Of a stretch of 64,000 nt of DNA, positions 67 through 40,492 are shown piece by piece (position 1 is the stretch's first letter; each line of letters begins with the position of its first letter). The position numbers and the translations under genes were made by a program. The notes beneath the pieces were generated by a model, which was not told the DNA's origin, searched no databases, and saw only the letters and a list, made by a program, of their open reading frames with translations. This DNA is from Azolla caroliniana. Its lineage: Eukaryota > Plantae > Polypodiophyta. The stretch lies in assembly GCA_043228905.1 (NCBI GenBank), contig JBHGNT010000006.1:4650001-4714000 (forward strand), written 5' to 3'.

Positions 67-243
67 TGTCGTGGAGAAAACTGTCCCTAGGTGGAAACCG
101 GGTATAACGTGCGTAAACCGGCCCTTACACTTGGGCACAAGTTTTGTTGTATAGTACATAGGTGGGTATAAATCGGCTGAGGTGAAATCCTAGGTAGCAC
201 GCATTCATTAGGGAGAAAATCGAGGCGTATGCCTGTCCGAAAG
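67..243 (+). mobile_element. Ty3/gypsy 3' LTR, left part (split by copia insertion)
   Basis: Starts TGTCGTGGAG directly after a G-rich PPT (GGTTAGGTGGGGCCGGA, 50-66). Continues at 4044 after the copia element. The rejoined ...TGTCCGAAAG|GACA... matches the uninterrupted LTR at about 8311-8330. Confidence 0.85.
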
Positions 244-865
244 TGTTGGGATTACGGTCCCTCCGGATGGGATGGTCGGATGTCCGGGAATCGGGAATGA
301 AGACCCGAATGAGGAGTACCCGGTATCGGAGCCGGATGATGAAGACCCGGTTCCGGATCCGGATGATGAAGACCCCAGCTACGGAGCCGGATGACGAATG
401 TACCCGGAGAGAGATCCGGATACGGGGACATATTTGTGAATATGTTTGCCAAGGGCCCTTGAGGCTATATTTGTAAATAGCCCGAAAGTCATATGTGTAT
501 AAATATCACTTAGGGCAAACAGTTTTGTTGTTGTTACTCATTTTTTCTGTTCTCCACTTAGAGGGAGCTAAGTGAGAGCAGCAGAGAGAGAGAGAAAGGA
601 AGAGGTCGACGCCTCTGTGTAATACCGCCGCCTGTGGCGAGGACAGCGAGCTCAAGGTCGTCGCCTTGCAGCTCGCCATTGTACATTCCCTGCGTATAGT
701 GATAGTTGGAGTCTTGCACTCCCGTGGTTTTTTTTCGTCTAGGGTTTTCCACGCTAAACCCTGTGCATTCGAGTCCCTCTCTGTGTTTTGTTTTCTGCTG
801 CATTGATTCGTGTTTCCTCGGTTGTGGCCGAGAGGTGAAGGTTTAGAAAGCGTCAATTTCTAACG
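244..865 (+). repeat. copia 5' LTR
   Basis: TGTTGGG...TAACG, a direct repeat of 3417-4038. Contains short tandem GAGCCGGATGATGAAGACCC-like units (about 328-395) and TATAAATA at about 498. Confidence 0.97.
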
Positions 866-868
866 ATC

Positions 869-880
869 TGGTATCAGAGC
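869..880 (+). promoter_or_regulatory. primer-binding site (tRNA-iMet)
   Basis: TGGTATCAGAGC 3 nt downstream of the 5' LTR. Confidence 0.95.
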
Positions 881-887
881 GACTGCA

Positions 888-3020
888 GTGCAGAAAATGG
901 AAGGCGGCAGCAGCGGGCAGCTGGGGATGATGGTGCTGAATGCGCAGAACTACGCCAACTGGAAGATAAAGATGGAGGATCTGCTCATTGTTCGGGACCT
1001 GTATGAACCGATCGACAGGTCGGAAATACCCAAGGGGGTACTTGAGATGGAATGGAGGCTTCTGAACCGGAAAGCCGTTGCAACCATTCGGCAATACGTC
1101 GACGTGAGCGTTCTACAACATGTGGCGAACGACACCAACGCATATGAGATGTGGCAGAAGCTGTCGGGCCTCTACGAGAGGAAGAATGCGTTGAACCGGA
1201 CCTCCCTGATGAGGAAGATAGTGAACCTCAAGTACCGGGACGGCGAGAGTATGGTGGAACACGTAAGCACGTTCATGGGATTCGTGAACCAGCTTGCGGC
1301 GATCAAGTTCCCGTTGGAGGATGCAATGCAAGCCATCATCCTGATGTGTACATTGCCGGCAAGCTGGGAGAACTTGGTGGTGACTCTCAGCACCTCCTGC
1401 ACCGAAGATAACTTGTCCCTACAAACGGTAAAGACAAGCATTTTGAACGAAGAAGCGCGTCGGAGAGATAAAGAACCGGCCTCCGATCCGAAGATGCTGC
1501 TTACCGAATCGGATCGGGGAAGACAACGGAACCGGAGTCCACAAAGACGGGAGAAGTCGGGGACCCAGTCGCAGTCAAGAGGAAGGCCCACATGCTTCCA
1601 CTGTGGGAAGCCGGGGCATTTCCGAAAGAATTGTCGGCATTACCGAAAAATCAACGGAGCCGACGACACCGATTCGAAGAAGTCTTCGGAATGGAACGGT
1701 GCTTACCGGGGAGCCACGGACCGGAATGGTTCGGATCGGCGAGAGCAGGACCGGAAAGGAACGACGGCACTCGCGGGAAGTGAAGAGGAGATCATGCTCA
1801 TCACCGAAGAAGGTGAACTAAACATTGCCGGCGATGAGACTACCTGGGTGGTCGATTCCGGAGCGTTGTTCCACCTGACCCCGGAAAGAAGATACTTCTC
1901 ATCCTACATAGCCGGTGAGCATGGCTGTGTTCGGATGGGAAATGAAGGTACGTGCCGGATTGCCGGCATAGGAGACGTGTGGCTGACAACCTCGACCGGA
2001 GGCAAAATGTTGCTGAAGGATGTCCGACACGTTCCGGAGGTTCGATTGAACCTGATTTCGGCCGGGAGGCTAGACGATGAAGGCTACACAGGTAGCATCC
2101 GGAACGGCGTAATGAAGTTCAGCAAGGGGAGCCTGATAGTGGCTCGGGCCCGGAAAGTCAACACACTGTACCTTATGAATGCCTGGTTGTGTCCGGAGGA
2201 GTTGAACGTGGCAGCCGACACTGCCGGTGAGCTGTGGCACAAGAGACTGTGCCACATGAATGAGAAGGGGATGAAGAGGCTTGCAGAAGACAACCTTATT
2301 CCAGTGAAGCATGTGCACCTGGAGAAGTGCACCGATTGCCTGGCCGGTAAGTAGAACCGAACCTCCTTCCACTCAAGGCCACCGACGAGACGTAGCGCAC
2401 CATTGGAGTTGGTGCACACTGACGTGTGTCAAGTAGAAACGAAGTCACATGGCGGAGCCCAGTACTTCGTGACATTCATTGATGACCACAGCCGGAAGCT
2501 GTGGACGGCACCGTTGAAGACAAAGGACCAAGTGTTGTGCATCTTCAAAGAACTCCACGCAAGAGTGGAAAGGGAATCCGGCAAGAAGCTGAAAGCGATA
2601 CGAGCGGATAACGGAGGGGAATACCGGGGGCAGTTCGAGGAGTATTGTCGCTCGAAGGGAATCCAGCTCGAGTTTACTGTGCCGAAGACGCCGAAACTGA
2701 ACGGGCTGGACGAGAGGATGAACCGGACCATAATGGAGAGGGTCCGGAGTATGCTGGCGCATGCGAAATTACCCAAGGGGTTTTGGGCTGAGGCAATGTC
2801 GACGGCGACATACGTGATAAACAGATCACCCTCAGTACCTTTGGACGGAGACACGCCGCAGAGAGTGTGGACCGGTAGGGAAGTATCCTACCGGCATCTG
2901 AAGGTGTTCGGGTGTCTCGCATACGTGCATGTGGCAAAGGACCGGAGAGGAAAGTTAGATCCAAAGACCCGGCCATGCATATTCCTCGGTTACGGCGACG
3001 ACGAGTTCGGCTACCGGCTG
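888..3020 (+). pseudogene. copia gag-protease-integrase polyprotein with one in-frame stop (TAG 2352-2354)
   Basis: Gag (NYANWKIKMEDLL), zinc knuckle CFHCGKPGHFRKNC, protease WVVDSGA, LWHKRLCH...CTDC, integrase core LVHTDVC/FIDDHSR/DNGGEY/ERMNRT, ending LGYGDDEFGYRL. Confidence 0.93.
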
Positions 3021-3406
3021 TTTCGTGGCAGTCGAGGCTGCAGAAGACGGTTGCGTTGTCAACCACGGAGGCGGAGTACATGGCGGCTGTTGAAGCCGGC
3101 AAGGAAATAATATGGATGAAGGACTTCATTAGAGAGCTCGGTATCCGGCAGGAGGAGTACCGACTCTACTGCGACAGTCAGAGTGCCATCCACCTTGCGA
3201 AGAACGCGGCCTATCACTCCCGGACGAAGCACATCCAGCAAAGATATCACTGGATCCGGGAAAGGATAGAAGACCAGGAGTTCGTGCTGACGAAGATCCA
3301 CACGGACGAGAACGGGTCAGATATGCTGACCAAAGTGCTCACACCCGACAAGCTGGAAGCGTGCCGGAAGAGGGTCCGACTGGAAAGACATCCCATGCCG
3401 AAGTGA
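3016..3406 (+). pseudogene. copia RNase H C-terminal portion fused out of frame after the RT deletion
   Basis: AVSWQSRLQKTVALSTTEAEY...CDSQSAIHLAKN...RTKHI...SDMLTK. Confidence 0.93.
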
Positions 3407-3416
3407 AGGGGGAGTT

Positions 3417-4038
3417 TGTTGGGATTACGGTCCCTCCGGATGGGATGGTCGGATGTCCGGGAATCGGGAATGAAGACCCGAATGAGGAGTACCCGGTATC
3501 GGAGCCGGATGATGAAGACCCGGTTCCGGATCCGGATGATGAAGACCCCGGCTACGGAGCCAGATGACGAATGTACCCGGAGAGAGATCCGGATACGGGG
3601 ACATATTTGTGAATATGTTTGCCAAGGGCCCTTGAGGCTATATTTGTAAATAGCCCGAAAGTCATATGTGTATAAATATCACTTAGGGCAAACAGTTTTG
3701 TTGTTGTTACTCATTTTTTCTGTTCTCCACTTAGAGGGAGCTAAGTGAGAGCAGCAGAGAGAGAGAGAAAGGAAGAGGTCGACGCCTCTGTGTAATACCG
3801 CCGCCTGTGGCGAGGACAGCGAGCTCAAGGTCGTCGCCTTGCAGCTCGCCATTGTACATTCCCTGCGTATAGTGATAGTTGGAGTCTTGCACTCCCGTGG
3901 TTTTTTTTCGTCTAGGGTTTTCCACGCTAAACCCTGTGCATTCGAGTCCCTCTCTGTGTTTTGTTTTCTGCTGCATTGATTCGTGTTTCCTCGGTTGTGG
4001 CCGAGAGGTGAAGGTTTAGAAAGCGTCAATTTCTAACA
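3417..4038 (+). repeat. copia 3' LTR
   Basis: TGTTGGG...TAACA, followed by TSD GAAAG. Confidence 0.97.
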
Positions 4039-4043
4039 GAAAG

Positions 4044-4537
4044 GACATGGAATAAACATGATGTAACGGGTGGTAACGACCTCCCTCCTTGGGCTATAAA
4101 AGAGAGGGAGAGGTATTAAAAATATATTGCGTTTTGGGCGGAGGACGAAGTGCTGCCGGACTGGAACCGAGCTCTTCTCCTCTATCTTCTCTATAGTCGT
4201 TCTGTGCAGGTTTTCGGGAGGCTGACTCTGCCCCGCGGAACACCCGAGTGCTTCCGATAGAGTCTCCATCTCGCGTTCTGTGTGTGTGTGTGTGTGTGCA
4301 GGTGTCGGAGCCTATCACTCGCTGGCTTGCCGGTTGTAACTCATTGATATATATATACATACACATTCATTCTATCTCCGTTGTTCAAGGCTAGTTGCAA
4401 CTTCTGTGAATCTGTGTGTCTGTGCGCGTGTGAAGTACATCGGCATTATCCTTCCCCTCTTCTGATTCGGTTATTTCTCGGTCCAAGGCTCATGTGGTCC
4501 CGCCTCGTTCTGCACGCACGCGCATAACAATGCGACA
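4044..4537 (+). mobile_element. Ty3/gypsy 3' LTR, right part
   Basis: CCTCCCTCCTTGGGCTATAAAAG TATA block, (GT)n, ends GCATAACAATGCGACA. Similar to the LTR at 20725-21418 (-). Flanked by CCGT of host integrase sequence. Confidence 0.85.
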
Positions 4538-7500
4538 CCGTGTCCGCGTTCCACCTTCCCATTCGCCTACGGATTGTACGTCGTGGTGAGCGAGAGTTTA
4601 ACTCCTAGTCGATCAAAGAACTCCTCAGCCTCTTGTGCGTCCAATTCTCCGCGGTCGGCTATGAGCTTTCCTACGCACCCGTATCGGCATACCACTTCTT
4701 CGATCAGAAATTAGCACACGGACACGGTCGTTTTGTTCGGCAATGCTCGACCTTCCTCCTGGTTCGTCAGGTCCTCTCGAGCCAGCACCAGGTATCGCAT
4801 CTGCCCTATCCCCATCGGCATCGTAACCTGATCCACCATCCACTTGAAGTGGATGGTCGGAGGGTAGGTCGGGTGGAGCTCGTCCCGATGTCGGACTATG
4901 GAGTGCATCTGACAGCTTTCGCAAGCTGTCACGAACCGATGCACATCCCGGTATAGTCCCGGCCACCAATACTTCCCCTTTAGCTTCTCGAATGTGGCCC
5001 ACGTCCCGTGGTGCCCAACGCAAGGACTTTTGTGGTACGCCACCAACAATTCCTCTTGTTCCTCTTTCTTCGCCACAACCCGGAGCGGAATGTCTTTTCT
5101 CTTCTTCGGGTGTTTCCAAATGCACCCATCTCGTAGGAAGAATCAGTACGCTTTCTTCCGAATCCGGCTGGTCTCTTCCTTCGTCCATGCCACGTCCGGT
5201 GTCATTGTCTTCAGGAACCCGCCGATCTGGAGCCACTCCCCGCCGTACATGCTCTCGTCGAACTTGTTAAGCGTTGGAGTGCTCCCCTTGTTGTTACGTA
5301 AGCCGACTTCTTCATCCTCCGAAACCATGTCGTCCTCATCATTGAATCTCGCCCTTGAAAGCATGTCGGCGATGGCGTTGTCTTTTCTGGAAATGTGTCG
5401 TATTTTTGGATTCAGGGACTTGATGTACGCTATCCACCTGAGCATTGCTAGGTCCGGTGTCGCGTATCCGGAAACCATACCAAGAATCGGCAGGTAGTCC
5501 GTCTCAATTATCACCTCCGTCCCGATCAGGTAGTCTTTGTCGGCCTTGACCGCCGAAACGATACCCTAGAGTTCGCGTTTAACCTATGGGTACCCTCGTT
5601 GTCATTCACTGAGGACTTTCGCAACAAACCGAATGGGGAATCTCGTGCCGTTCTCATCCTCCTGGTTGATCACTCATCCGATTCCGGTCGGACTCGTGTC
5701 TACGGTCACGTAAATCGGAATGTCTTTACTGTAGACCGCTTTTCGGAGTGCCGGTGCCGCAACAAGTGCTTCTTTCATTTTCCGAACTGACTTCGTATGC
5801 TCCTCTCTCCACTCAAATTTATTCCCTTTCTTCAGCAGTCCATAGAACGGCTCCGCGACGTGGGCATAATGCGGGATCCATATATGGTAGAACGCGCATG
5901 CTCCTAAGAATCTCCTAACTTCCGTGACCGAATTGCAGTCGCTCTTCATCGCGGAGATGGCCTCTACCTTGGCTGGCGACGGTTTCCGACCAAATGGCCC
6001 GCATAGGTGTCCGACGACCATGATCTCTGATTGCCCGAAGGCCGATTTTTCCCCGGAGATGGTGAGCCTTGTGCCTTCTAGTCTTCGCAACACCTTCTCG
6101 CAGTCATCGACGTGGTCCGCCACGAATTTCCGGCATCCGTCCGGTCAGATTGTCTTGTCCTTATCCTCCATCGGGCATCCTTTGATCGGGATGTCTTCTA
6201 AGAACGACATGGTGACGTCCGGGATACAATCCCTTAGGACCTTGTTCATCGCGTTCACCATGTGGGCTACCGAGTTAGTCCCTCCTTGCGGAAGGGTACA
6301 CATCTGTAATAGGCCGAGAGGAGTCTGCATCGTCGTAATGTCCCTGCTCTCCATGGCTAGTTCGAACTGATCGTACCCCGAGTACATATCACCGACTGAG
6401 TGAATCGACCTTCCGGGAAGGCCTCCATGAACTCTTCGATGGTCAGTCCGATTCCTGTGTTCCGAATGGTCACTTTGTTGACCGGCTACAGGTCTTGAAT
6501 AAAGCGCAACGTGCCGTTCTTCTTTGGCACAATAAACCACCGATTAGAATACAGGGCACTCGACGGTTCGAGGATGCCCATATCCACCTTCTGTTTCAGC
6601 AGCTCCATCAGCTTTGGGATGTGAGCTCTGGGTACTGGAATCGGTTTGAGATTCCGCGGTACATGCGGTACCGTGAAGATCACCATCGGTTCCACAATCG
6701 TCGGGTCTACGCACCCGATCTTCTCCGGCGAGAATGCGAAGGCCTTTTCGTGCCTCCCGAGCATTCTCCGAAACCGGTTCTCCTCCGTCGGCAATAGAAA
6801 GCCACCCCCCCCTCCCTTAGCGTTATGTCGGTGAATCAGTGACCTATGCCAGCCGGATCTCGTAAACTTGGGTCTGACGCGACCCCTTTAATCCGTAACT
6901 CGTTGCCCTCCGGCAAGGGTGCCACGATTGGCCTCACCTTCCGGTCCGATCCGACTTGAGTCCTCTACTGAAGTCGGCGATGACTTCGTACATCTTTTCT
7001 GTACATACCGGAATCGTTTGGTCTCCACTAAGGCCCTCTCCGAACACCTCCCGTAGCTTCCCCAAGGTGTTGTCGAAAGAGACTGCCTCCACGGCTCCGT
7101 TGATTTCCTCTCCGGGGCTGAGGACTCCGCATGCCCTGAGTCGCTCCTCTGTCCGCTTCTTCTCCCGGCCAACGACCCTAAACTTCCTAACTATGTTACA
7201 AGTTCTTCTGCCTACTATACACGTGTGGGGTTTTTCCGGAGTGTCCGGACTATCGCGGCCCCACGCCTTGATAGCCCTCTCTAAAAATCCCCTCGGCTTT
7301 CGCCGCCGAGGGTCTCTCGGTTTCGTTCATGGTTCGGTTGTACCATCAGAAACTGGACGGAGTGACGCTCGTCTTGTGTCTTTACTCGCGCGTACGCCGA
7401 CACATTGTCCAACACCTTCGTCTCCATTCGTGCCGCTGTGATGTACGGTTCCCCGAGTATCATTGGATGCGAGGATGTCTCATGCACAAAGAAGTGCTGA

Positions 7501-8156
7501 TCGATCTCGACATCACCGATTTTCACTCGTACATTTGGGTAGGGTCCGTGTAGCTCCTCCATGGCGCGCATCGCCGCTCGTATTTTCCACCCATGCTTGC
7601 TGTTGATCACCCACTTGCCCATCTTGTAAAAGTCGATGGACATCAAGTTGATTTCCGAACCGTGGTCTAGCCTAATGTAGCCTTGAATAGTGGCTTTCCG
7701 CCAACTCGTCTCCCAGGGCCATGTCTTCTAGGTGCGTCATTCGCACCTCCACCGGCTCCGGCTCTGTTGAAAGCCTCTTCCGCTTCACCAAGTCTACGAT
7801 GGAGTCGTGGAACTCCTTTTTGGCGATATTGAGCACCTCCCTCAGCGACAACTCCATTTTGCTGTCGAGGATTCGTTCCTCCAAGACCTTTCGTAGGTCC
7901 ATGGTCCTCTCGATCTTGGTGCTCAACCGGTAACCGGCCTTCTTGGCCTTGTCCGATGCGCCGGACGCACCAACGTCATTTTGCCTCTGCCTGAACCGGG
8001 TCTCATACCGTTGCGAGGGTCCAGCCCCTCCGGTCTTTCCCGCATGCTTCTCTTCTACCAGAACCTCGTAGTTCTGCCACACGGCTTTTATAAAACCCGT
8101 CTTTTCTTCGACCGGGTCACTCCACCTGGTTACTTGTTGGACCCGTCTTTCCGCGC
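4538..8156 (-). pseudogene. Ty3/gypsy element A internal region: gag C-terminus, protease, RT, RNase H, integrase N-half (degenerate)
   Basis: LDHGSEIN protease (7656-7667). RT motifs NRWFIVPKKNGTLRFIQDL, GYDQF, TLPQGGTNS. RNase H VDTSPTGIG. Integrase HHCC (HKSPCVGHHG...CESC). Many frameshifts and stops. Both ends cut by later LTR insertions. Confidence 0.92.
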
Positions 8157-8527
8157 TGTCGTGAAGAAAACCGTCCCCAGGCGCAAACTGTGTATAGCGT
8201 GCGTGAACCGGCCCTTGCACGTGGGCACGCCCCTTGTTGTATAGTAGATAGGTAGGCACAAAAGTCAAATCCTAGGTAGCAATATTCTATAGGGGGAATC
8301 AAGGAGTATCTCTGTCCGAAAGGACAGAGAATTAATGTGATGTGAACGGGTGAAACGGCCTCCCTCCTTGAGCTATAAAAGAGAGGGAGACGGGGAGAGA
8401 AGGGATCGCGCGCTAGAGGGGACAAAGTGCTGCTGGACTAGGACTGAGCTCTTCTTCTGTGTCGTTCTCTATAGCTTTCTTTTGCGCAGGTTCTCGAGAG
8501 GATGATTCTGCTCCATGGAACACCCGT
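8157..8527 (+). mobile_element. Ty3/gypsy LTR, truncated by insertion of the next LTR
   Basis: Starts TGTCGTGAAGAAAACCGTCC. Homologous to 67-243/4044-4250. Confidence 0.85.
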
Positions 8528-9192
8528 TGTCGTGAAGATTTTCGTTCACAAGCGGAAACCCGAGCAACGAGAGCCAAAGAGTGATGTGCAACGTTGCACA
8601 CGTACATAATGTATTTGTAATAGTAATAAAGGTATAAAGGTGATGTGGTTGTACGCACATCCACGCGAGAGAGAGAGAGAGGTACTATGCGGTACATAGG
8701 TACCTCGTTGTTTGTGAGGAGGTGGGAGTTAAGGGGCCATCAATCTCACCCTCCCCCAAATCAAGGCAAATATCCCCTTTGAATGAAAGGGGATATTTTA
8801 GTCTCACTTTTGTAAACGGTCTTCCCTCCTTGTGCTATAAAAGGAGAGAGAAGGCACCATTGTGGGGGTTGCCTATTTTGAGTGTGCGAGGTATACCACA
8901 TAGGTCGAGCGTTAGGGTTCGGTTAGGGTTTTCTTCTTGGGTTTTCCTTTAGGGTTTTCTTATAGTCGTTTGGTGCAGCCATGGCGGCCACCATTGTAAA
9001 GTATTTATGTTTTCTTAATCGAACTTCTTGTTGAGTATCTTGACTCCATCTTCTTCATCTTCTTCTATCATAATGTCATATTCGTTCTCTTCTCCTCTTG
9101 AGCTATGAGCTAATCTTCCATTCGTTGTCTTAACCTTTCTCCTCTTCTCCCTAGTCCAAGATCCCCGTGGTCCCGCCCTTCCACATGCACGC
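8528..9192 (+). mobile_element. Ty3/gypsy LTR (second subfamily), interrupted close to its 3' end
   Basis: Starts TGTCGTGAAGATTTTCG. 8810-9192 aligns with the LTR at 31160-31540 (TATA block, TTAGGGTT repeats, GGCGGCCACCATTGTAAA). Confidence 0.8.
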
Positions 9193-9955
9193 TATTGTGA
9201 AGAATTTCGGCCAGAGGCGGAAACCGGGAACATTGGCTACATCGGTGGGGTGCAACGTGTGTACGCACCCATGTACATTTAGTGTGAATATCGAGGGCGC
9301 CTTTATGGCGCCGAAGAGTAGTCAAGTCGGGACAGACGATCCCATGTAAGTCGGGATTTGTCCTACATTGTAACGCATCCCTTTCCTTGTTCTATAAAAG
9401 GATGGGAATGCCCTTTGTGAAAGGGTTGCCCATTTTGCATTAGAGGGTATATCGTTAGGTTTAGAGTTAGTTCCTTCTTCTTCTTCTTCTCCTTCGTGTT
9501 CGCTGAGGGTTTGCTTCAGCTCATCTCCTTCGCAAGACCCCGCTCGGCGCGACGAGCCCATGAGCTCCCCGACGGTGGCTTGGCAACTGACGACTACTGT
9601 AACCTACCTTGGTCTAGCTCGAAGCCGGGAATGTATTCTTCTATTTATATATATACATTTGTGTCTGTCTGTATATTCGCGTCTCTGTCGGTGTCGGGTG
9701 CTTCCCCTTTTCTGCGTTTCCTGTACATAAGGGCGTGAGTCGTGTCTGCATGTTTGTGTATGTGTGTGTGTGTGCGTGAGTCGGTGTTAAGCGCGTGCTC
9801 CCTCTCTTTCTCTCTCTCCCTTCGGTCGCTTTCGGTGTTCTTCTGGGGTCCCCCGGAAACGGTGAAGCACGACTTCCTACGCTCCGTCACTCCCTGGTCC
9901 AAGACCCCCGTGGTCCCACCTTTCTCTACGCACGCGCGTAACAACGCGACATATT

Positions 9956-9972
9956 TGGTGAACCCGACGTGA
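9956..9972 (+). promoter_or_regulatory. primer-binding site complementary to tRNA-Trp 3' end
   Basis: TGGTGAACCCGACGTGA, the reverse complement of UCACGUCGGGUUCACCA (plant cytosolic tRNA-Trp 3' end, from memory). Lies 4 nt after the LTR end. Confidence 0.85.
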
Positions 9973-9988
9973 AAGGCGGCAAGGGAGG

Positions 9989-10790
9989 ATGGAGTCGGAA
10001 GACGACGACCTCGTGGAGAAGGTGGCCGAAGTGGTATTGGAGTCGGCACGAGTGGTGATAAGGCGAGAAGCAGTGCAACAAGCGGTTGAGCGAGTGGTCG
10101 AAAGAGTCGGATGTTTCAACGGGGACAAAGTCCCATCTTACATGGAAGACTACAATGCGGAAATGGAGGAGTGTGGCATAGAGGAGGAGTTGAGGCTGGA
10201 GTTCTTCTGTCGGGTCATAGCTTTCCGGATGCATGCGGAAATAAAGGAGCTCCGTGAGGCTCATAGTTCGTGGGAGGCCTTCGAAGAGGCGCTCCTGAAG
10301 GCATACGGAGGACGGCGGAAGAGCCGGGGACGGCACGACTTCGACTAGTGGGTAGCAACGGCAAAGACCCACCGGGGCGCTGCCAAGGCGTTTCGAGAGT
10401 TCGAGCGGCAGCTTGCTCGGCTCCCAGAGCGGGAACAAGGTTTGGTGGGGGCGGACAAGGTCCTATTGTTCGTTAGGTCGATCGACCGAGCGGAATGGAA
10501 GGCCATCGGGATTGAGCTCGAAGACGATGATGGAGCGAATGGGCTTATGGAGGACTGGTCAAAGGTCGGAAGGGTGTGCCAACGGCTAGACAACGAGCGA
10601 GCCGAGAAGGCTAAGAGGAAGGTACGCGACGGCGTGCCATCACAGCGGGAAGAGGCCGAACGGCAAAGAGAGTTGGCAAGGGTCGGCGTTGGGGCCAGGA
10701 TTGCGGAGGCATACGCAGCTCTGGAGGCGATGCTCGAGGAAGAGGAAAGACGGGGGCCGCAAGCGGAGACTGAGAAGACGGACTTCCCCA
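9989..10790 (+). pseudogene. gypsy gag N-terminal domain (element B)
   Basis: VERVGCFNGDKVPSYMEDYNAEM...KVLLFVRSIDRAEWKAIGIELEDDDGANGL aligns with gag of elements D and E (FDGRNVTKFLDAY; KTLYFLKAVD...LLEDDTQANGL). Confidence 0.8.
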
Positions 10791-11837
10791 CGCGACGGCG
10801 GAAGATCGGTACGTCGTTACCACGGGAGAGGGTGCGGAACGAAACACCCTCTCAACTTGCGGAGAAAGAACGGCCAAGGACGAGGCCGAGATACAGATCG
10901 CGGAACCGGAACGTTGGGACCAAGGGTTTCGGGCGTGTCAGCCCGAGATCCCGGTCATTGGAGAAGCAAGCCCAGACGGGGCTTGCGCGATCGGTAAGAA
11001 GACGACCGCCGACCACGAAGAGTCGGTGACTGCGGACAAGGGCGTAAAACGGACGGGCGATTCTTTGTGTCTTCCCACACTTGCTCCCGGGACAATGGCA
11101 GTCGGGCCCGAGTGCCCACATAAGTCCCAAGCGGAGGAAGGCGGCGGCGAAAGGCGTGGAATCACTGGCGAGACGATACGGGGAAGGAGCGGACGAAAGT
11201 CAACGGACCCAATTCCGGAGAACTCGGCATTCGGGCCCGTATGCCCATGTAAGACCGAGGAGATGGATGGCGGTACCGAGGAGTCCTGGCACGATGCCAA
11301 CGAAGATGGATGGGAAACGGCCTGTGAGGAGGCCGAGGATAGAAGCGGCATGAGGAAATCGGCATTCCAATACAGGTGGAGCGTGATCCGGTCGTGGATT
11401 GTTCGATCGGGGCCGGATTCGGCATGAAAGTGCCGAAACGGAAGAGGGTGCGGGACGAGCCGCCCTCTTTTACATGGGGAGAAAGACCGACCGGGCGAAG
11501 GTCAAGATTTGGGGGGGGAATGAAAGCCGGTCCTATGGGATTCCTTACATCGATTCGGCCGCCGGCCTGAGTACCGACGTGAGTCCTATAAGAGAGATCG
11601 GTGGCGACAGGAGAACGGGACTCGGCAATCCGGAGAAAGACGAACGAACCCGAGCGAGAACCGGGCGGAGCGGACTTCCGGATGACCATTCCGAGAGGGA
11701 GGAAGAGAGTTGGCCTACGAAGAGGCCGAGGACACGGTACGTCGGTACCACGGGAGAGGGTGTGGGACAAAACGCCCTCTCGGCATGCGGAAAAGGACAC
11801 CTGGGACAGGGTCAAGAAGGCGACGAACGCCCACAAA

Positions 11838-12053
11838 GGATCCTTCACACCGGTTCTAGAGACTTCGGCGGTCGGCAATGCGGTCGACGTAAGACCAAGA
11901 TACTGATAGTGGCGGCGAGGTGACGAAGGCAAAAGGGCTACGGATGGGCGGTCTACGGAGGATCCTTCACACCGGTTCTAGAGACTTCGGCAGTCGGCAA
12001 CGCGGTCGATGTAAGACCAAGATACTGACGGTGGCGGCGAGGTGACGAAGGCA
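11838..12053 (+). repeat. 122-bp tandem repeat (two near-identical units; diverged units across about 11070-13060)
   Basis: GGATCCTTCACACCGGTTCTAGAGACTTCGGC...GTAAGACCAAGATACTGA...GGTGACGAAGGCAA at 11838 and 11960. Diverged unit heads at about 11538, 12080, 12266, 12650 and 13023. Confidence 0.9.
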
Positions 12054-13070
12054 AGGGCGGAACGGAGTCCGGTCCTACGGGATCCCCACACTTAACCAGA
12101 GACTCTGGCAGTTCGGCCAACGTGGCAACATGAGACTGAGAGAGAAGGGTGGTGGCGGCGGGAAACGGGTCCCGACTATGCGAAAGACACGAGGAGAGTC
12201 CGGGAGGGACTCAAACAAAAGACACCCGAATTACGGCAGGCATAGAAACGGAGTCCGGTCCTATGGGACCCTCACACCGATCCAAAGACCCCGGCTGATC
12301 GGCCAACACGGCAACGTAAGACCGATGGAGAAGGACGGTGGTGGCAGGGAACGAGACCCGACAACACGAGGTAGTGGATAGGGAGCCGGTAAGACGGGCG
12401 GACGAAGTGCAAAACCCTCACCGGCCAGTCACGGTTTCGGAAGGAGCCGGTAGGGGCAAACACGGGGAGGTGTGTCTGGCCGAAAAGGCACACCTTGGAC
12501 AGAACAAGAGCCTCGCAAGTGGCCATCGCGGGCCGGATCGAAGCGTGACTACGGGACGGTGTTCGGTGCGGGCGGGGCCGAACGAGGTGACAAGTGCCTA
12601 GTGGACTGCACAGGGTCGGAGTCAGGGGATGGCAAGAGAGGCCAGAGGAGGATCCTCCACACTCGCTTCGTAGATCTCGGTAGCTCCGTCGAAGTAGCGA
12701 AGACTGACACGGCAAGCCGGGATGACAAGCTGGTGGGGGCGAGGGGACGACGGCAAGCGGAAGACTCACGACCTATTGCGGCAGCACGAAGACGGGAAGG
12801 GCCAAGCGGGCTACTACGGGGTGTTCCTCGGATGCAAAGGACACCAGTATGCGGGTGAGCGGCGATGCACGATCTAGCCGGAAAGGGGGCCGACAAGGAG
12901 TGCAACACATGCAGTGCCAAACAACGGACGAGGGTATGCGGCACACGGAGGTGCCGGAGTGGAAAGGCAAGCGTGGAAATAGGTTGCGCGGTTCGGAGGT
13001 AGCGCGGAGAAGGCCGGAAAGGGGATCCTCCACACCGTTCTGGAGACCATGGCGGTTCGAGCCGACGCGG

Positions 13071-13510
13071 TGTCGTGAAGAAAACCGTCCACAAGTGGAA
13101 TCGGTGCGCCGGAGCGTAGGAACCGGGTCTTCTTGCGTGTTGTACATAAGAGAGAATGTTGTACATAGAAGATCCTAGGTAGGTAGATTCGGTAGGTAGG
13201 GAGTTAATGGGAAACGGCTCCTTCCTTGCTTATAAAAGGAGTGAGACGAGGAGGGGCGCGGGATCGGGGGGGGAAGGAGGAGATGACGAAGTGCTGTCGG
13301 ATTGTGGGCCGAAGGCTTCTCTCTCTTCCAAACTCCATAGCTCCTTTTTGTGAGGTTTCGGGAGGCTCGCGCTGCTCTGAGGAATGCCCAGTGCTTCCGG
13401 CAGCACCTCCAACCTACTCCTTTCTTTCTGTGCGTTTACGAATAGGCATCAGCATCTGTTCGCCGGCCTGTTCGGTTGTAACCGATTCGTGTTCTTGTTG
13501 TTTTGTCTTG
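13071..13510 (+). mobile_element. Ty3/gypsy LTR, 3'-truncated and fused to gag sequence
   Basis: Starts TGTCGTGAAGAAAACCGTCCACAAG. Inverted homolog of about 13750-14162. Confidence 0.85.
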
Positions 13511-15442
13511 CGGAGAGCCGTACCTGGGAGGAGTTCGAAGACCGACTCCTAGAGAAATACGGGCTGGACGACGCTGTCAAGGTATCCCTCGTGGATGCGT
13601 GGAATGAGGCGGGACCTCGGGGGTCCTGTACCGAAGAACAAGAGAGAAAAGGAGTGGGGAACAGACCCAAAAGGTGCGAGCGTAGATTCACAGGGACACG
13701 GCCCTTCGACACAGAGAGACACGAATGTATGTAGAAATATATATAAACAAGACAAACAACAAGCACGAAGTCGGTTACAACCGAACAGGCCAGCGAACAG
13801 ATGCCGATGCCTGTTCGTAAACGTACAGAAAGGAAGAAGTAGGTTGGAGGTGCTGCCGGAAGCACTCGGGCATTCCTCAGAGCAGCGCGAGCCTCCCAAA
13901 ACCTGCACAGAAAGAAGCTATGGAGTTTGGAAGAGAGAGAAGCCTTCGGCCCACAATCCGACAACACTTCGTCCTCCCTTACTTTTCGATCCCCTCTCCC
14001 CTCCTTGTCTCCCTCCTTTTATAGGCAAGGGAGGAGCCGTTTCCTATTAACTTCCTACCTACCGAGGATCTTCTATGTACAACATAAGGCGCACGTGTAT
14101 GAAGAGCCGGTTCCTACGCTCCGGTGCACCAATTCCGCTTGTGGACAGTTTTCTTCACGACAACGCGCTCCGGCTTTCGAAAAGGGACTTCATGGAATGG
14201 GTGGAGTCCCCCGACAAGGGAAGAAACGCGTCGGCACTCCTTCGGGAGTTCGAAGAATGCTTTGCGCGCCTTTCGACGCTTGACCGAACCGTTCTGGATA
14301 CGAGCCGGGTCCTACTGTTCGTCAGCTCGGTGGACGAGCGGGACCGGGATCAAGTCGGCTCCTTGCTGGAAACCGAAGACGGGCTGACGACCGACTAGGC
14401 TGCGGTTAAGAGAGTCTGTGGCCGTTTCGACAAACGGCGGGAATGGGCTGACAACGGGGCGGCCGGTGCGGGCTCTGTCACAGCAAGGAGGCTTGAACTG
14501 GCACCGCAAGGGCGAAGGGAAGAAACCCGGGAATGGCTCGAAACCGGTCCGGCTTCGACCGGCATGGTCAATGGCTCGTCCGGAGGAGCAGCGGTGGAGG
14601 AGTTGACGCGGGCGATAAAGGATCTCCAGATCGCCCAGACTCGAAGGGAAGGCGGCGAACCGGCTCGTGACCGACGGCCGGCAGTAGGGAACAGGTGCAT
14701 GTGGTGCGACGAGGTCGGCCACATTCGGAAGGATTGCGGCGATTTCGCAGAGGCGTTGAGGAATCGGGTGGTGTACCTGTGGGAAAGCCGGGTGCACGCC
14801 GGCGACACCAGAAGGGCCCTAAACCGAAACGACGGGCGAGGAGGTATGAAGAGACTGATGGAAGAAGCAGCGGCCCGACACGTGGAGGCCATCCACTACT
14901 CGGCGTCAGCCGGCATTCGGGTCGGGGGCAGCGAGGCCCGAAAGGAGAGCAAAGAAGGATTCTGGTCGGCAATGCTAGAAGGCCTCGCCGGTGCACGGTT
15001 GAGGAAAGACGAAGCGGACCGCGCCGAGAGACGGGTCCGGGAAGTAACCGGGTGGAGCGACCCGATCGAGGAGAAGACGGGCTTCGTAGAAGCCGCCTGC
15101 CGGAACTACGAGGCTCTGGTAGAAGACAAACGAGTGGGGAAAGCCGGAGCGGCCCAGCCCTCACAATGGTACGAGACCCGATTCGGGCAACGACGGAACG
15201 ATGCCGGCGGGTCCAGCGCGCAAGATAACCCCAGGAAGGAAATAGAAAGGACTACGGACCTACGAAAGGTCCTAGAAGAACGGATCCTCGAAGCAAAGTG
15301 GAGTTGTCATTACGGGAGGTGCTAGGGATCGCCAAGAAGGAGTTCCACGACTCCATTGTGGACTTGGTGAAACGAAAGAGGCTGTCGACGGAGACGGAAC
15401 CGGAAAGACCGGTGGAGGTGCGGACGACGCACATCGACGACA
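13511..15442 (+). pseudogene. gypsy gag fragment (interrupted by solo LTR)
   Basis: ESRTWEEFEDRLLEKYGLDD|ALRLSKRDFMEW..., zinc knuckle CMWCDEVGHIRKDC, ...VEVRTTHIDD. Confidence 0.88.
13575..14162 (-). mobile_element. solo LTR (Ty3/gypsy) with 4-bp TSD ACGC
   Basis: TG...CA termini. ACGC at 13571-13574 and 14163-14166. Removing the LTR plus one ACGC restores gag GAC GAC GCG CTC CGG (DDALR). Confidence 0.93.
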
Positions 15443-18400
15443 ATCCGACAATCCGACAACACTTCGTCCTCCCTTACTTTTCGATCCCCTCTCCCCTCCT
15501 TGTCTCCCTCCTTTTATAGGCAAGGGAGGAGCCATTTCCTATTAACTTCCTACCTACCGAGGATCTTCTATGTACAACATAAGGCGCACGTGTATGAAGA
15601 GCCAGTTCCTACGCTCCGGTGCACCGATTCCGCTTGTGGACGGTTTTCTTCACGACATCCGCCCCCACCTAACCGCGCATTCACCGGCATGCGCCAAATT
15701 GAGTTGGGACGGAGAAAACCGGTCCAGCCTTTATTCCCCGCCCGTCGGTTCTTCTTCGGTTTCGGATCGTTCGTCGTCCCGGTCCAGGTTATCCGGATCC
15801 AGCTCGTCGTCGTGACGCTTCTTGAACGCTTTGATCCGCTTCCCAGCTACCGGTATCGCCATTCTCGTGTCGTCGAGCTCCGCCAGATGGTACGTCCCGT
15901 TGTCGTTGGCGCTTTGTACCACGTAAGGCCCGAACCACCTTCTTGCGAACTTCCGTGTTGCTCGGTGCTGGTTGTCGAGGCTGCTGTCGTAGACTAGCAC
16001 CAAGTCGCCTTCCTCGATCTTCTTCGGTCGAACCGGGCTTTGTTCCTCATCCTTGCCACCCGAAGCTTTTCCGTAGCTCGCTCTACGTCCTCCGGTCTTC
16101 GCTCGAGCTGCCGTATGCGCGCCGTCAATAGTTCCTCCCGGCTCATCTCGTCTCTCCAGTCCACGGTTGCCCATGAGGAGATCGTATGTTCCATTGGCAT
16201 GATCGGCTTCTGCCCAAACATGAGCTCTGCCGGCATGAATCCGGTTACCGAACTATGCGTAGTTCGGTCCGCCCACAACGCGTAAGGCAACAGCCGCGGC
16301 CAGTTCCCGACTTGACCTCCGCATGCCCGAACTAACGCCTTGACAATCGGTCCGTGTCCGCGCTCCACCTTCCCATTCGCCTCCGGATTGTACGCAGTGG
16401 TAAGCGAGAGCTTGACTCCTAGCCGGTCGAACAACTCCTCGGCCTCTTCGGCGTCCAACTCCCCGCGATCAGCCACGATCTTCCCGACGCACCCATACCG
16501 GCATATCACGTCCTCGATCAGGAACCGACATACGGCCGCGGTCGTTTTGTTCTGAAGGGCTCGACCTTCCACCTGGTTCGTCAGATCTTCCCGAGCCAGG
16601 ACCAGATACCGCATCTGTCCTACGCATCGTCACCAGATCTACCATCCATTTGAAGTGGATGGTCGGAGGGTACGTAGGGTGAAGCTCGTCCCGATGCCGG
16701 ACTATGGAGTGCATCTGACAGCTCTCGCAAGTTGTCACGAACCGATGCACGTCCTAGTACAGTCCCGGCCACCAGTACTTCCCCTTTATCTTCTCGAACG
16801 TGGCCCACGTTCCACGGTGTCCGGCCCAAGGGCTGTCGTGGTAGCCCGTCAGCAGCTCCTCCTGTTCTTCCTTCATCGCCACCACCCGGAGCAGGACGTC
16901 GTTCCTCTTCTTCGGGTGCTTCCATAAGTATCCGTCCCGGAGAAAGAATCGGTAAGATTTCTTCCGGATCCGGTTGGCCTCGTCCTTCGTCCACGACGCA
17001 TCCGGCGTCATCGTCCTCAAAAATCCACCGATCTGGAGCCACTCGCCGTCGTACTTGCTCTCGTCGAAGTTGTTAAGTGTCGGAGTGCTCGTCCCATCAG
17101 TCGTCACGTACGCTGCCTCGAAGAAGTCCACGTCGACTTCTTCGTCCTCCGAAACCATGCCGCCCTCGTCATCAAACCTTGCCCTCGAAAGCATGTCGGC
17201 CATGGCGTTGTCCTTTCCGGAAATGTGCCGTATTTCCGGGTCCAGGGACTTGATGTACGCTATCCACCTGAGCATCGCCAGGTCCGGTGTCGCGCATCCG
17301 GAAACCATGCCGAGAATTGGCAGGCAATCCGTCTTGATAATCATTTCTATCCCGATCAGGTAGTCTTTGTTGGCTTTTACTGCCGAAACGATACCCCAGA
17401 GTTCGCGTTTAACCTGGGCGTACCCTCGCTGTCGCTCACTGAGGACCTTCGCGCCGAATCGGATCGGGAACCGAATGCCGTCCTCGTCTTCTTGGTTGAC
17501 GACCCATCCGATCCCGGTCGGACTCGTATCCACCGTTATGTATACCGAGGTACCCTTCTCGTAGACAGCCTTCCAGAGCGCTGGTGCTGCCGCAAGAGCT
17601 TCCTTCAGCTTCCGGACCGACTCCGTGTGCTCGTCTCGCCACTTGAATTTTCGCCCTTTCTTCAGCAACCCGTATAGCGGCTCCGCAATGTGGGCGTAAT
17701 GCGGGATCCATATGTGGTAGAACGCGCACGCCCCCAGGAACCTCCGAACTTCCGTAACCGAGCTACAGTCGGTCTTCATCGCGGAGATGGCTTCTACCTT
17801 TGCCAGAGACGGCTTCCGGCCATATGGTCCACATAGGTGTCCGACCACCAGGATTTCCGATTGTCCGAAGGCCGATTTCTCCCCGGAGAAGGTGAGCCTC
17901 GCATCCTCTAGCCTTTGTAGCACCTTCTCGCAGTCGTCGATGTGTGTCGCCACGAATCGCCGGCATCCGTCCGGCCCGACTGTCTCGTCCTTCTCCTCCA
18001 CCGGGCACCCCTTGATCGGGATGTCGTCTAGAAACGGCATGGTGATGTCCGGGATGCAATCCCTCAGTACCTTGTTCATTGCATTCACCATGTGGGCTAC
18101 CGAGTTGGTCCCTCCTTGTGGCAAGGTACACATTCGCACCAGGCCGAGGGGAGTTCGCATTGTCGTAATGTCTCTGCTCTCCACGGCTAGCTGGAACTGG
18201 TCGTACCCCGAGTACAGATCACCGACCGAGTAAATCGACCTTCCGACGAAGGCCTCTGCGAACTCGTCTATGGTCGGTCCAATTCCTGCGTTCCAAATGG
18301 TCACTCTGTTGACCGGCTGCAGGTCCTGAATGAAGCGCAATGTTCCGTTTTTCTTTGGTACGGTAAACCATCGGTTCGAGTATTGGGCACTCGACGGTTC

Positions 18401-20080
18401 GAGAATGCCCATATCGACTTTTTGCCTCAATAGCTCCATCAACTTCGGGATGTGAGCTCTCGGTACTGGAATCGGCTTGAGATTCCACGACACATGTAGT
18501 ACCGTGAATATCACCATCGGCTCCACAATCGTCGGGTCTACGCACCCGATCTCTTCCGGCGAAAACGTGAAGGCTTTCCCGTGCCTTCCGAGCATTCTCC
18601 GAAACCGGTCTTCCTCCACCGGCAGTAGGAACCCGCCCCCATCGATCTTGAGCTCCCGGAGCGTCCCATCGGTGAAGGTGTGTCCTATGCAGGCCGGATC
18701 TCGTAAACTGGGGTCCGACGCAACCCCTCTGATTCGGGACTCGCTGCCCTCCGGTAAGGGTGCCGCGACGGGCCTTACCTTCTGGTCTACAGTCTTGTAC
18801 TTCGTGCTAACTCGGGCCGTCCGATCCGACCCGAGCCCCCGACTAAAGTTCGCGATGACTTTGTACATCTCTTCGGAACATACCGGTATCGTCCGGTCTT
18901 CGTTAAGGTCTTCTCCGGCTACCTCCCCCAGCATTCCCAAGGTGTCGTCGAAGGAGACCGCCTCCACGGCTCTGCTGATTTTCTCGTCCGGGCCAAGAAC
19001 TCCGCACGCTCGAAGTCGCACTTCCGCCCTTGTCTTTTCTCGACCGACGATGCCGACTATCATACACCCTCCGTTGTTGGAGCAGCAGAATTTCCTACCT
19101 ATCGTACAGGGTTCCTTTGGTTTCGGTTCTATCGTACAGACGTGGGGTCTTTCCCGAGTGTCAGGCTATCTCAGCCCCACGCCTTGGCAGCCCTCTCTAA
19201 AAATCCTCCCAGTTCTCGCCACCGAGGGATTCGCGGTTTCTCTCGTGGTTCGGCCGCACCGTCAGAAATTGAACCGAATGGCCCCCGTCCTGGCTTTTGA
19301 CCCTCGCGTAGGCCGAACCGTTGTCCAGCACCTTGGTCTCCATTCACGCCGCCGTGATGTATGGTTCCCCTAATATGACCGGGTGCGAGGATGTCTCCTG
19401 TACGAAGAAGTGCTGGTCAATCTCGACGTCGCCGATCTTGACTCGCACGTTCGGGCAGGCCCCGTGCAGTTCCTCGGTGGCGCGCGTCGCCACCTATATC
19501 TTCCACCCGTGCTTGGTGTTGATCGGCCACTTTCCCTTCTTATAGAAGTCCATGGACATTAGGTTTATTTCCGAACCGTGGTCCACCAATGCCACCACCG
19601 GTTCCTGAACATCTCCGATCTTTACCGGGGTATCCGTGGTCGCTCGGGCCCAGTGCGGCCTTGAATAGTGTCTCTCCGCCCACACATCTTCCAACGCCAT
19701 GTCGTCGATGTGCGTCGTCCGCACCTCCACCGGTCTTTCCGGTTCCATCTCCGTCGACAGCCTCTTCCGTTTCACCAGGTCCACAATGGAGTCGTGGAAC
19801 TCCTTCTTTGCGATCCCTAGCACCTCTCGCAATGACAGCTCCACTTTGCTGTCGAGAATCCGTTCTTCAAGGACCTTTCGTAGGTCCGTAGTCCTTTCTA
19901 TTTCCGTCCCCAGTCGGTATCCGCCCTTCCTGGAGTTATCTTGCGCGCTGGACCCACCGGCATCGTTCCGTCGTTGCCCGAATCGGGTCTCGTACCGTTG
20001 TGAGGGCCCGGCCGCTCCGGCTTTCCCCACTCGTTTGTCTTCTACCAGAGCCTCGTAGTTCCGGCAGGCGGCTTCTACGA
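15443..20080 (-). mobile_element. Ty3/gypsy element C: gag C-terminus, PR, RT, RNase H, integrase, PPT, partial 3' LTR (15443-15657)
   Basis: VDHGSEIN. 769-aa pol ORF 16754-19063. Integrase core 15994-16614 (ADRGE, YNPEANGKVER). GPY-type C-terminus 15731-16174 (RRWFGPY). No chromodomain. PPT at 15658-15674. Confidence 0.93.
16754..19063 (-). CDS. gypsy Pol (RT-RNase H, start of integrase), largest intact segment
   Basis: YKTVDQKVRPV, RFIQDLQPVN, DLYSGYDQF, PFLDDIP, VDTSPTGIGW, NAMADMLSR, HDSPWAGHRG. Confidence 0.9.
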   Translation of the reverse strand: MIVGIVGREKTRAEVRLRACGVLGPDEKISRAVEAVSFDDTLGMLGEVAGEDLNEDRTIPVCSEEMYKVIANFSRGLGSDRTARVSTKYKTVDQKVRPVAAPLPEGSESRIRGVASDPSLRDPACIGHTFTDGTLRELKIDGGGFLLPVEEDRFRRMLGRHGKAFTFSPEEIGCVDPTIVEPMVIFTVLHVSWNLKPIPVPRAHIPKLMELLRQKVDMGILEPSSAQYSNRWFTVPKKNGTLRFIQDLQPVNRVTIWNAGIGPTIDEFAEAFVGRSIYSVGDLYSGYDQFQLAVESRDITTMRTPLGLVRMCTLPQGGTNSVAHMVNAMNKVLRDCIPDITMPFLDDIPIKGCPVEEKDETVGPDGCRRFVATHIDDCEKVLQRLEDARLTFSGEKSAFGQSEILVVGHLCGPYGRKPSLAKVEAISAMKTDCSSVTEVRRFLGACAFYHIWIPHYAHIAEPLYGLLKKGRKFKWRDEHTESVRKLKEALAAAPALWKAVYEKGTSVYITVDTSPTGIGWVVNQEDEDGIRFPIRFGAKVLSERQRGYAQVKRELWGIVSAVKANKDYLIGIEMIIKTDCLPILGMVSGCATPDLAMLRWIAYIKSLDPEIRHISGKDNAMADMLSRARFDDEGGMVSEDEEVDVDFFEAAYVTTDGTSTPTLNNFDESKYDGEWLQIGGFLRTMTPDASWTKDEANRIRKKSYRFFLRDGYLWKHPKKRNDVLLRVVAMKEEQEELLTGYHDSPWAGHRGTWATFEKIKGKYWWPGLY

Positions 20081-20255
20081 TCTCTCTCTCTCTCTTCACA
20101 TAATATATATCTTTTCTTATCATCACTCTCTCTCTCTCTCGATCTCTCTCTCCCTCCCTCTCACTCACTCTTTCCTTCTCTCGAGAGTTCTTCACCTCTC
20201 TTAGTACTAATACTTCTTTTAGTACTAAGTCCTTCTCTGTCTTAGTACTGTTCCC
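20081..20255. repeat. (CT)n/AT-rich filler replacing the middle of gag
   Basis: Microsatellite-like tract with three TTAGTACT motifs, lying between gag N-terminal and C-terminal sequence. Confidence 0.75.
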
Positions 20256-20831
20256 GACAAGCGTTCTTCAAACTCCCAGAGGAGCACCGGCGCGTTTCTC
20301 CCCTTTTCGGGGGTCTCCACCCATTCCATGAAGTCCCTCTTTGATAGCCGAAGCGCATCATCAAGCCCGTATTTCTCAAGGAGCCGACCTTCAAATTCTT
20401 CCTAGGTCCGGCTCTCAACCCGTACCTCGAGCACCTCCGCATGGATGCTTGGCATTGCCACCCGAGGGAATCTGGCCAGTCGCCTATCCTCCGGAATGTC
20501 CCTCATCACCATTTCGGCTCGGTAGGCCTCCAAATAGCTCGTGGCGTCCTTTCCACCGAACCAGCCTATCGTGCCGACGATCGCTTCAATGGCCCTATCG
20601 AGGGCGCCTGCACCCTCGCGCACACTCACTATCCGATCCACAACTGAAGGCATGGTTTCTGCAAGCTCCGATCCCCTCATCTTTGTATTCCTCTGCCACC
20701 AATTCACATCGGGTTCACCAAATATGTCGCGTCGTTATGCGCGTGCGTATAGAACGAGGCAGGACCACGTGGGTCTTGGACCGAGGAATATCCGATGAAG
20801 AGTAGGAGCAAGGAAGACAACGGTCGTGCTT

Positions 20832-20868
<37 letters not shown>

Positions 20869-40378: not shown

Positions 40379-40492
40379 TCCAAGCAATCAAGCCCCTTTT
40401 GTAACTGCTACTCTCAACAGACTTGCTTCAAGTCCATCTAAGAGCTGAGAGAGTTTTGCTCTTCGCCCAAATGACAATCAATCTATATAGCC

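Follow-up and report, generated by a model that had tools for sequence, protein, structure and literature searches.

How does an element whose protease and reverse transcriptase lie in different reading frames supply its polymerase? The question is raised by a Ty3/gypsy-type family in a 64,000-nucleotide stretch of the Azolla caroliniana genome (contig JBHGNT010000006.1, positions 4,650,001 to 4,714,000; hereafter the window). In three copies on the minus strand, called A, C and E, the frame for Gag and protease (Gag-PR) finishes at a slippery heptamer with a predicted pseudoknot behind it, and Pol, with reverse transcriptase (RT), RNase H (RH) and integrase (IN), continues in the -1 frame. 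Comparison with relatives makes it very probable that the whole family uses a programmed -1 ribosomal frameshift at the protease/RT border, with a predicted H-type pseudoknot as stimulator.

The protease/RT border in the window

The features of the three copies are listed below in window coordinates (LTR, long terminal repeat).

7666..8160, minus strand: copy A, gag remnant (8160-7666), in a frame that differs from the protease frame
7281..7718, minus strand: copy A, protease region (DHGSE motif) and C-terminal tail
7284..7290, minus strand: copy A, slippery heptamer G_GAU_UUU, the last two Gag-PR codons, Asp-Phe
7281..7283, minus strand: copy A, Gag-PR stop UAG, first half of the 6-nt spacer (TAGAGA, 7283-7278)
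7270..7277, minus strand: copy A, predicted pseudoknot stem 1, 5' strand GGGCTATC (RNA GGGCUAUC)
7259..7264, minus strand: copy A, predicted pseudoknot stem 2, 5' strand GUGGGG, inside the stem 1 loop
7247..7254, minus strand: copy A, predicted pseudoknot stem 1, 3' strand GATAGTCC (RNA GAUAGUCC)
7225..7230, minus strand: copy A, predicted pseudoknot stem 2, 3' strand CCCCAC, behind a 16-nt loop
6934..7290, minus strand: copy A, -1 (Pol) frame, 118 open codons, then a stop (dead copy)
4516..6946, minus strand: copy A, remnant of RT, RNase H and integrase in several frames
20704..21418, minus strand: copy C, 5' LTR TGTCG...CGACA (21418-20725) with ACGT before it; primer binding site from 20720
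19127..19218, minus strand: copy C, cassette with heptamer at 19206-19200; a single base is missing just 3' of stem 1
15764..19165, minus strand: copy C, Pol (RT, RNase H, integrase), broken
from 29461, minus strand: copy E, 5' LTR with ACGG before it; primer binding site at 28322
26065..28263, minus strand: copy E, Gag (DUF4100)-protease with one premature stop, in the protease
25994..26086, minus strand: copy E, cassette with heptamer at 26074-26068 and stem 1 CGGACUAUU/AAUAGUCCG
24812..26074, minus strand: copy E, -1 frame, open from the shift site into RT (426 aa), then truncated

In copy A, the Gag-protease end GAT TTT TAG was found at 7289-7281, and the heptamer, the 6-nt spacer, the 8-bp stem and the loop GUGGGG with its partner CCCCAC all lie where a first-pass annotation of this DNA had placed them. 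The 12-mer that it had reported from copies C and E is exact in both: GGATTTTTAGAG occurs three times in the window, starting at 7290, 19206 and 26074, against a chance expectation of 0.49 with at most one mismatch. The 0 frame finishes ...DF* in all three copies (G_GAU_UUU_UAG), and the differences in stem 1 among them mostly preserve the pairs. The claimed read-through of the -1 frame in copy A held in part: the frame reads GFLERAIKAWGRDSP...RLRACGVL, but after 118 codons, ahead of RT, it runs into a stop (6936-6934), and the remaining Pol is broken. All three copies are dead. A covariance model of the cassette, scanned over the window, matched the three known cassettes only, and Rfam gave no match for window 7000-7500 at E values up to 1.

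Frame layout across relatives

A metagenome scan gave 169 relatives, of which 80 were kept; 74 of these have a protease end and 60 of the 74 a downstream Pol match as well. Pol lies in the -1 frame and is open across the stop in 56 of the 60 loci, the open frame beginning 10-121 bases upstream of the Gag-PR stop. The remaining four loci comprise two with Pol open in the +1 (= -2) frame (L051 and L058, treated below) and two degenerate ones. No relatives were found among viral contigs.

Of 195 homologous proteins that reach the protease end, 61 finish in DF or GF, 45 five residues later, three in VF plus one residue and 42 otherwise, and 44 run on; the exact DF C-terminus was present in 33 of 120 homologous proteins.

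The shift signal

An in-frame GG[AGT]TTT[TC] was found in 65 of the 74 loci with a protease end (56 GGATTTT, five GGATTTC, two GGGTTTT and two GGTTTTT), and the -1 loci carry G_GAU_UUY or G_GGU_UUU. Twelve different codons precede the heptamer, all ending in G; the pattern demanded this G, and the sole DF-ending locus without it is the degenerate L017. As a background, G_GAT makes up 16% among Asp codons. The stop behind the heptamer can be any of the three or lie five codons further on, so the identity of the stop is free and that of the heptamer is not. The 0-frame heptamer is of the X_XXY_YYZ type, G_GA being an accepted variant of XXX known from umbraviruses, dianthoviruses and insect flaviviruses according to the available sections of a 2016 review (PMC5009743); these sections agree with the earlier statement that G_GAU_UUU followed by a stop is a shift site of dianthoviruses and umbraviruses.

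The alignment and covariation analysis that the first-pass annotation had suggested for the junction was run on the metagenome loci, with 53 distinct cassettes aligned from sequence alone. Stem 1 occupies the same gap-free columns in all of them, six bases after the heptamer. Over its 11 positions 81% of cells are paired, compared with 24-43% with slid partners, and each of the eight core positions is broken in only 0-4 of 53 rows. Nine of the 11 pairs change on both sides, and none of 500 shuffles attained the covariation score; this control ignores relatedness, so that the covariation is strong but carries no probability. Stem 2 favours its own partner, scoring 15.9 with it, 14.0 ± 0.35 when partners are swapped (0 of 500) and 11.4 when tails are shuffled, and shows the compensating swaps GCGAGA/UCUCGC, GCAGGGA/UCCUUGC and AUGAGGGU/ACCCUCAU. 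A separate set of per-position pairing counts, fitted to the structure, is biased in its favour. The predicted stimulatory structure begins within the 5-9 nt downstream of the heptamer. In four DNA runs, summed contig depth is at its maximum across 7234-7295, a rough indication that the copies are best conserved there; the search of sequencing runs listed no RNA carrier.

The trans-frame linker

The shift site and the conserved KYK motif are 120-139 codons apart. The linker between them is free of stops in the Pol frame in all 43 distinct intervals, whereas the two remaining frames contain 356 and 440 (seven further loci, missed by the KYK motif pattern, were skipped in this count), and its length is kept in whole codons. 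The ratio of nonsynonymous to synonymous substitution rates (dN/dS) is 0.28-0.40 in seven pairs; one pair was saturated. Among the -1 majority, the Pol frame has its first Met anywhere from codon 3 to codon 111 with no shared position, and in an alignment of 28 linker peptides conserved residues precede any shared Met. The linker is under purifying selection at the protein level in the Pol frame.

About 100 residues after the pseudoknot are conserved and predicted to be partly folded (window 7200-6940, minus strand; L001:4060-4370). The fold prediction reached a mean confidence (predicted local distance difference test, pLDDT) of 67 and a predicted template modelling score of 0.37, residues 31-95 forming a confident core (pLDDT 75-91). 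No RNase H-like match and no Pfam match were found in the linker, nor a match in the Protein Data Bank for the predicted fold.

A -1 frameshift and its alternatives

The -1 frameshift with an H-type pseudoknot after the protease, first proposed from the window, gains its support from frame conservation and from covariation across the 53 distinct cassettes. Gag and protease would be made in one frame that stops at G_GAU_UUY or five codons after it. A predicted H-type pseudoknot 5-6 bases downstream would stall the ribosome while GAU and UUU, paired to the Asp and Phe tRNAs, occupy its P and A sites. A minority of ribosomes would re-pair one base back, on GGA UUU; both steps are modelled on established -1 frameshifting. 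The shifted ribosomes would enter the linker of about 130 codons and then RT, RNase H and integrase, with a junction reading ...D-F-L-E-R. The outcome would be much Gag-PR and less Gag-PR-RT-RH-IN, with protease in both.

Several observations weigh against this reading, besides the relatedness that the shuffle control ignores. Of the 80 loci, 75 come from one assembly series and are probably collapsed repeat contigs, hence not independent. Nine of the 74 protease-end loci have no countable in-frame heptamer (two too short, seven degenerate or truncated), and in two of the 60 loci, L017 and L070, Pol is in other frames without an open junction. Single-sequence folds are weak (z of -0.73, -1.44 and -2.09 for copies A, C and E on 91 nt, and -0.7 to -2.4 overall), and the minimum-energy fold of copy A takes the stem-2 pairing and not the full stem 1, with a folding program that cannot form pseudoknots; the support for the structure therefore comes from the comparison across the family. 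Finally, the 44 of 195 proteins that continue past the site, of which the named ones are mostly gene models, and two long Riccia gene models, found in a search for long fused forms, which join protease and RT in one frame, are at odds with a break at this position. Both fused Riccia models lack DF and the peptide encoded by the pseudoknot, one being about 20 residues short, and they fit predicted introns.

Such gene models could also reflect splicing as in Ogre, where a partly spliced intron separates the coding regions at the same border (PMC6317226, sections available); an intron at the junction would be removed in a subset of transcripts, fusing protease to RT. Physcomitrium and Riccia gene models do join across the junction, and the start of stem 1 can resemble a donor in the DFGEVPL subfamily (GTAC in L066, L071 and L072). 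In most subfamilies, however, stem 1 begins GGAC or GGGC, the best donor-like position is present in only 17 of 50 cassettes and is located in the pseudoknot loop, and the acceptors differ widely between gene models. An interval that is stop-free in one frame only, in 43 of 43 cases, has whole-codon length and evolves at a dN/dS of about 0.3 with no conserved AUG argues against an intron as well as against reinitiation. For Tcn1, the available part of bioRxiv 2022.12.06.519325 documents an intron that had been predicted in error across a frameshift. We consider splicing very improbable.

Still less probable is a separate Pol, started from an AUG close to the Gag-PR stop through reinitiation or internal initiation, with the structure aiding the restart. 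The two members of the -2 clade, L051 and L058, do have an AUG in the Pol frame, 17-26 bases ahead of the stop, albeit at non-homologous positions, and in the -1 majority no Met position is shared, whereas the heptamer and its spacing are fixed. A C-to-T change at L051:2834, which turns CAG into TAG just before the shift site of this clade (in run X1, 347 of the 1352 depth units; also the single X13 contig), would be harmless under reinitiation; CAG is, against this, a methylation-prone context. A free Pol would also lack the fusion to Gag that usually packages Pol.

Transcriptional slippage, adding one base to some mRNAs on the five T's of G_GAT_TTT_T, is the least credible alternative, since the GGATTTC variants with three T's only keep Pol in the -1 frame (three loci with Pol) and a covarying RNA pseudoknot at a fixed spacing of 5-6 bases better fits a stimulator of the ribosome. 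The programmed -1 frameshift is accordingly the explanation we prefer for the family at large.

A clade with a candidate -2 shift

L051 and L058 are sisters (support 100 in a quick tree) and have intact long Pol frames of 1181 and 1106 codons, respectively, in the -2 (= +1) frame. Their cassettes are located as follows.

L051:2835-2900: cassette of L051
L058:2497-2562: cassette of L058

The protease end reads CAG GUU UUU GAC/UAC UAG, that is AG_GUU_UUU, and the same predicted pseudoknot begins five bases after the heptamer, the spacer being one base shorter than in the -1 cassettes. Both stems are retained, with changes that preserve pairing, and the Pol register relative to the pseudoknot is unchanged, RFLTRT of L051/L058 aligning with GFLKRT. 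The QVFD end is found again in all five other members of its 35-member protein cluster that reach the protease end, among the 15 members listed. Contigs of the L051 type span the site in three DNA runs, and of the variants listed for them none, indels included, falls in the heptamer, spacer or core stems; the probable RNA run X16, aligned on L051, covers the protease part only. The CAG-to-TAG variant may mark an amplified non-autonomous sub-lineage.

We lean towards a pseudoknot-driven -2 frameshift as the supply of Pol in this clade, which would have arisen from a -1 cassette by the loss of a single base: a one-base loss in G_GAU_UUU_U with its 6-nt spacer would yield AG_GUU_UUU with a 5-nt spacer. 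That the two loci instead use a +1 shift or reinitiation, or form a non-autonomous clade, is a serious possibility, if a little short of probable. A +1 and a -2 shift lead to the same frame, and UUU_U in L058 permits +1, whereas UUU_GAC_UAG in L051 gives no cognate +1 re-pairing. P-site re-pairing at -2 is poor (GUU to AGG), a limitation that the arterivirus -2 site shares (PMC6675879, in the part available). The upstream Pol-frame AUGs, at different places, and the CAG-to-TAG variant speak for the other possibilities, and only two distinct loci were examined. On the other side, stem 1 starts within the stop codon, so that the spacing fits a shift on UUU, and a synonymous divergence (dS) of 1.24 between L051 and L058 over RT-RH-IN, at a dN/dS of 0.076 there and 0.17 in the linker, indicates that the pair is old and that Pol has long been under selection in the -2 layout.

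A -2 shift at this heptamer has a known counterpart, G_GUU_UUU being the arterivirus nsp2TF -2/-1 site (available parts of PMC4937337 and PMC6675879). The likeness extends to the -1 shift, which runs straight into a stop in L051, as it does in PRRSV, and to the shorter spacer, of the kind that favours -2. The arterivirus signal depends on a protein complex on a C-rich motif, with no obvious RNA structure, whereas L051 and L058 have a predicted cis pseudoknot. The CCCANCUCC motif is absent 9-11 nt downstream of their heptamer, a place occupied by the pseudoknot. The L051/L058 signal would thus work like that of arteriviruses but is not a member of that class. Its cis pseudoknot resembles the situation in engineered constructs with U6A, a different heptamer, in which -2 shifts were favoured by spacers 1-2 bases shorter than for -1 (Lin et al. 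2012, PMC3458567, sections available). Other -2 cases named in the accessible text of PMC5009743 are phage Mu, arteriviruses, Trichomonas vaginalis virus 1 and a mammalian antizyme cassette in budding yeast.

The Riccia proteins P0101, P0173 and P0174 end in ...RVFPDSLL, and a further relative, P0259, in ...EKVFY, instead of DF. These ends possibly represent further G_GUU_UUU sites, and the ...EKVFY relative perhaps an independent -2 case.

Identity of the element

Pfam families were found for Gag (DUF4100) and for Pol (RT, RNase H-like and integrase), in the Ty3/gypsy order Gag-PR-RT-RH-IN between LTRs. The assignment to a plant gypsy family thus stands as far as the domain order goes, and can be refined. 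A Pfam scan of six full Pol frames (E up to 0.05) revealed only RT, RNase H-like and integrase families, with neither a chromodomain nor a second RNase H (aRH). Named homologs come from Physcomitrium (moss; 46-55% identity over the searched region), Riccia (liverwort) and Adiantum (fern), and none from seed plants. A primer site TGGTGAACCCG(ACGTGA), which we take to match the 3' end of tRNA-Trp, directly follows the LTR end in 31 of 37 long-Gag loci and is present three times in the window. Six LTR-like 5' ends in the window, without a preceding polypurine tract, all stand after NCGN (GCGC, CCGT, GCGG, ACGG, ACGT and GCGT); no 3' duplicates could be paired with them in the nested region.

In REXdb, the Phygy lineage is listed with a tRNA-Trp primer site (81%), a 4-bp NCGN target duplication, no extra domain and a coding organisation that is not determined (PMC6317226, Additional file 5). 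The family shares with Phygy the tRNA-Trp-type primer site, the lack of chromodomain and aRH, an internal part filled by the coding region and homologs in Physcomitrium, and the NCGN before its LTR-like ends would fit the target motif of that lineage; the lack of both domains sets it apart from TatI, which likewise has tRNA-Trp and a 4-bp duplication. On these listed features we call it Phygy-like, and its named relatives are from non-seed plants.

Many subfamilies also have a conserved motif, GGCACATRCCGGWGGATGTGC, between the Pol stop and the polypurine tract (L001:7430-7500 and other loci), which may act in cis in packaging or in the priming of the plus strand.

Surroundings in the window

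The neighbourhood of copies A, C and E and the other features seen in the window are the following.

67..31556, both strands: dense nest of LTRs and elements of the same family inserted into each other, six of them after NCGN
244..4037: young Ty1/copia element with 621-bp LTRs of 99.7% identity (244-864 and 3417-4037), inserted in an LTR of the gypsy family; the internal part appears shortened
9956, 10007..10600 and 14138..15483, plus strand: primer site and two stretches of gag, respectively, from a further copy of the same family
22341..23201, minus strand: endonuclease/exonuclease/phosphatase domain, probably of a long interspersed nuclear element, beyond the truncation point of copy E
37036..37629, plus strand: host dirigent-like gene
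40475..41995, plus strand: PPR gene
58766..59440, plus strand: copia gag remnant

Relation to known systems

The REXdb table holds no lineage with overlapping frames between protease and RT (PMC6317226, Additional file 5). It places the in-frame stop of Retand (49%) and the spacer of Ogre at this border, and the overlapping gag and pol open reading frames (ORFs) of Tcn1 (60%) and Selgy (65%) at the border between Gag and protease. Retand and Ogre, of the Tat clade, resemble the present family as non-chromovirus plant gypsy elements in which Gag-PR is split from RT-RH-IN at the same border; they differ in that both carry aRH and neither has overlapping frames. Tcn1 and Selgy share the two overlapping ORFs and the occurrence in non-seed plants, with the difference that the break lies between Gag and protease and that Tcn1 has a chromodomain. 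No description of their shift signals was found in the available parts of bioRxiv 2022.12.06.519325 and PMC6317226, the former stating that elements of the Tf1/sushi group mostly use -1 shifts. A 2003 survey, as quoted in the accessible sections of the 2016 review (PMC5009743), met separate frames for gag and pol in no more than two types of plant element, both of them +1.

The G_GAU_UUY sites of umbraviruses, dianthoviruses and insect flaviviruses share the heptamer and the stop close behind it (PMC5009743, as far as available). The stimulator of dianthoviruses and umbraviruses pairs over a long range with a distant stem-loop, whereas the predicted Phygy-like pseudoknot is local and spans about 53 nt.

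Rous sarcoma virus has its protease in the gag frame and thus the same split into Gag-PR and RT-IN. Its gag-pol signal is likewise a pseudoknot-stimulated -1 shift into pol (PMC5009743, in the sections available). It is a retrovirus with another heptamer and another pseudoknot, and the likeness is convergent.

The first-pass annotation knew of no such characterised signal in plant retrotransposons, and our literature search, with most subscription journals and Repbase outside its scope, likewise found no description of this signal or of a plant LTR-element frameshift at the protease/RT border with a pseudoknot. The available parts of PMC7466625, PMC2864245, PMC3350952 and PMC5006619 do not mention the signal. 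Not met in print within this scope were the placement at the protease/RT border with a predicted pseudoknot and the candidate -2 branch, which the first-pass annotation had not noticed; overlapping gag and pol frames themselves are already catalogued for Tcn1 and Selgy.

Implications

The analysis gives the likely coding strategy of a widespread lineage of non-seed plants that REXdb left undetermined. Plant non-chromovirus elements would then separate Gag-PR from RT-RH-IN at one border in three ways, by a stop (Retand), by an intron (Ogre) and, in the Phygy-like family, likely by a frameshift. In the annotation of moss, liverwort and fern genomes, prediction programs are likely to insert spurious introns at such sites. 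The family also offers about 50 naturally occurring versions of a compact predicted frameshift pseudoknot from plants. The L051/L058 signal, if true, would be a natural -2 shift stimulated by a cis structure in a eukaryotic retroelement and an evolutionary counterpart to the spacer-length experiments behind the mRNA-tension model. Should the -2 reading of this clade hold, its cassettes and the matching -1 ones would form a natural set on which to test what determines the direction of frameshifting.

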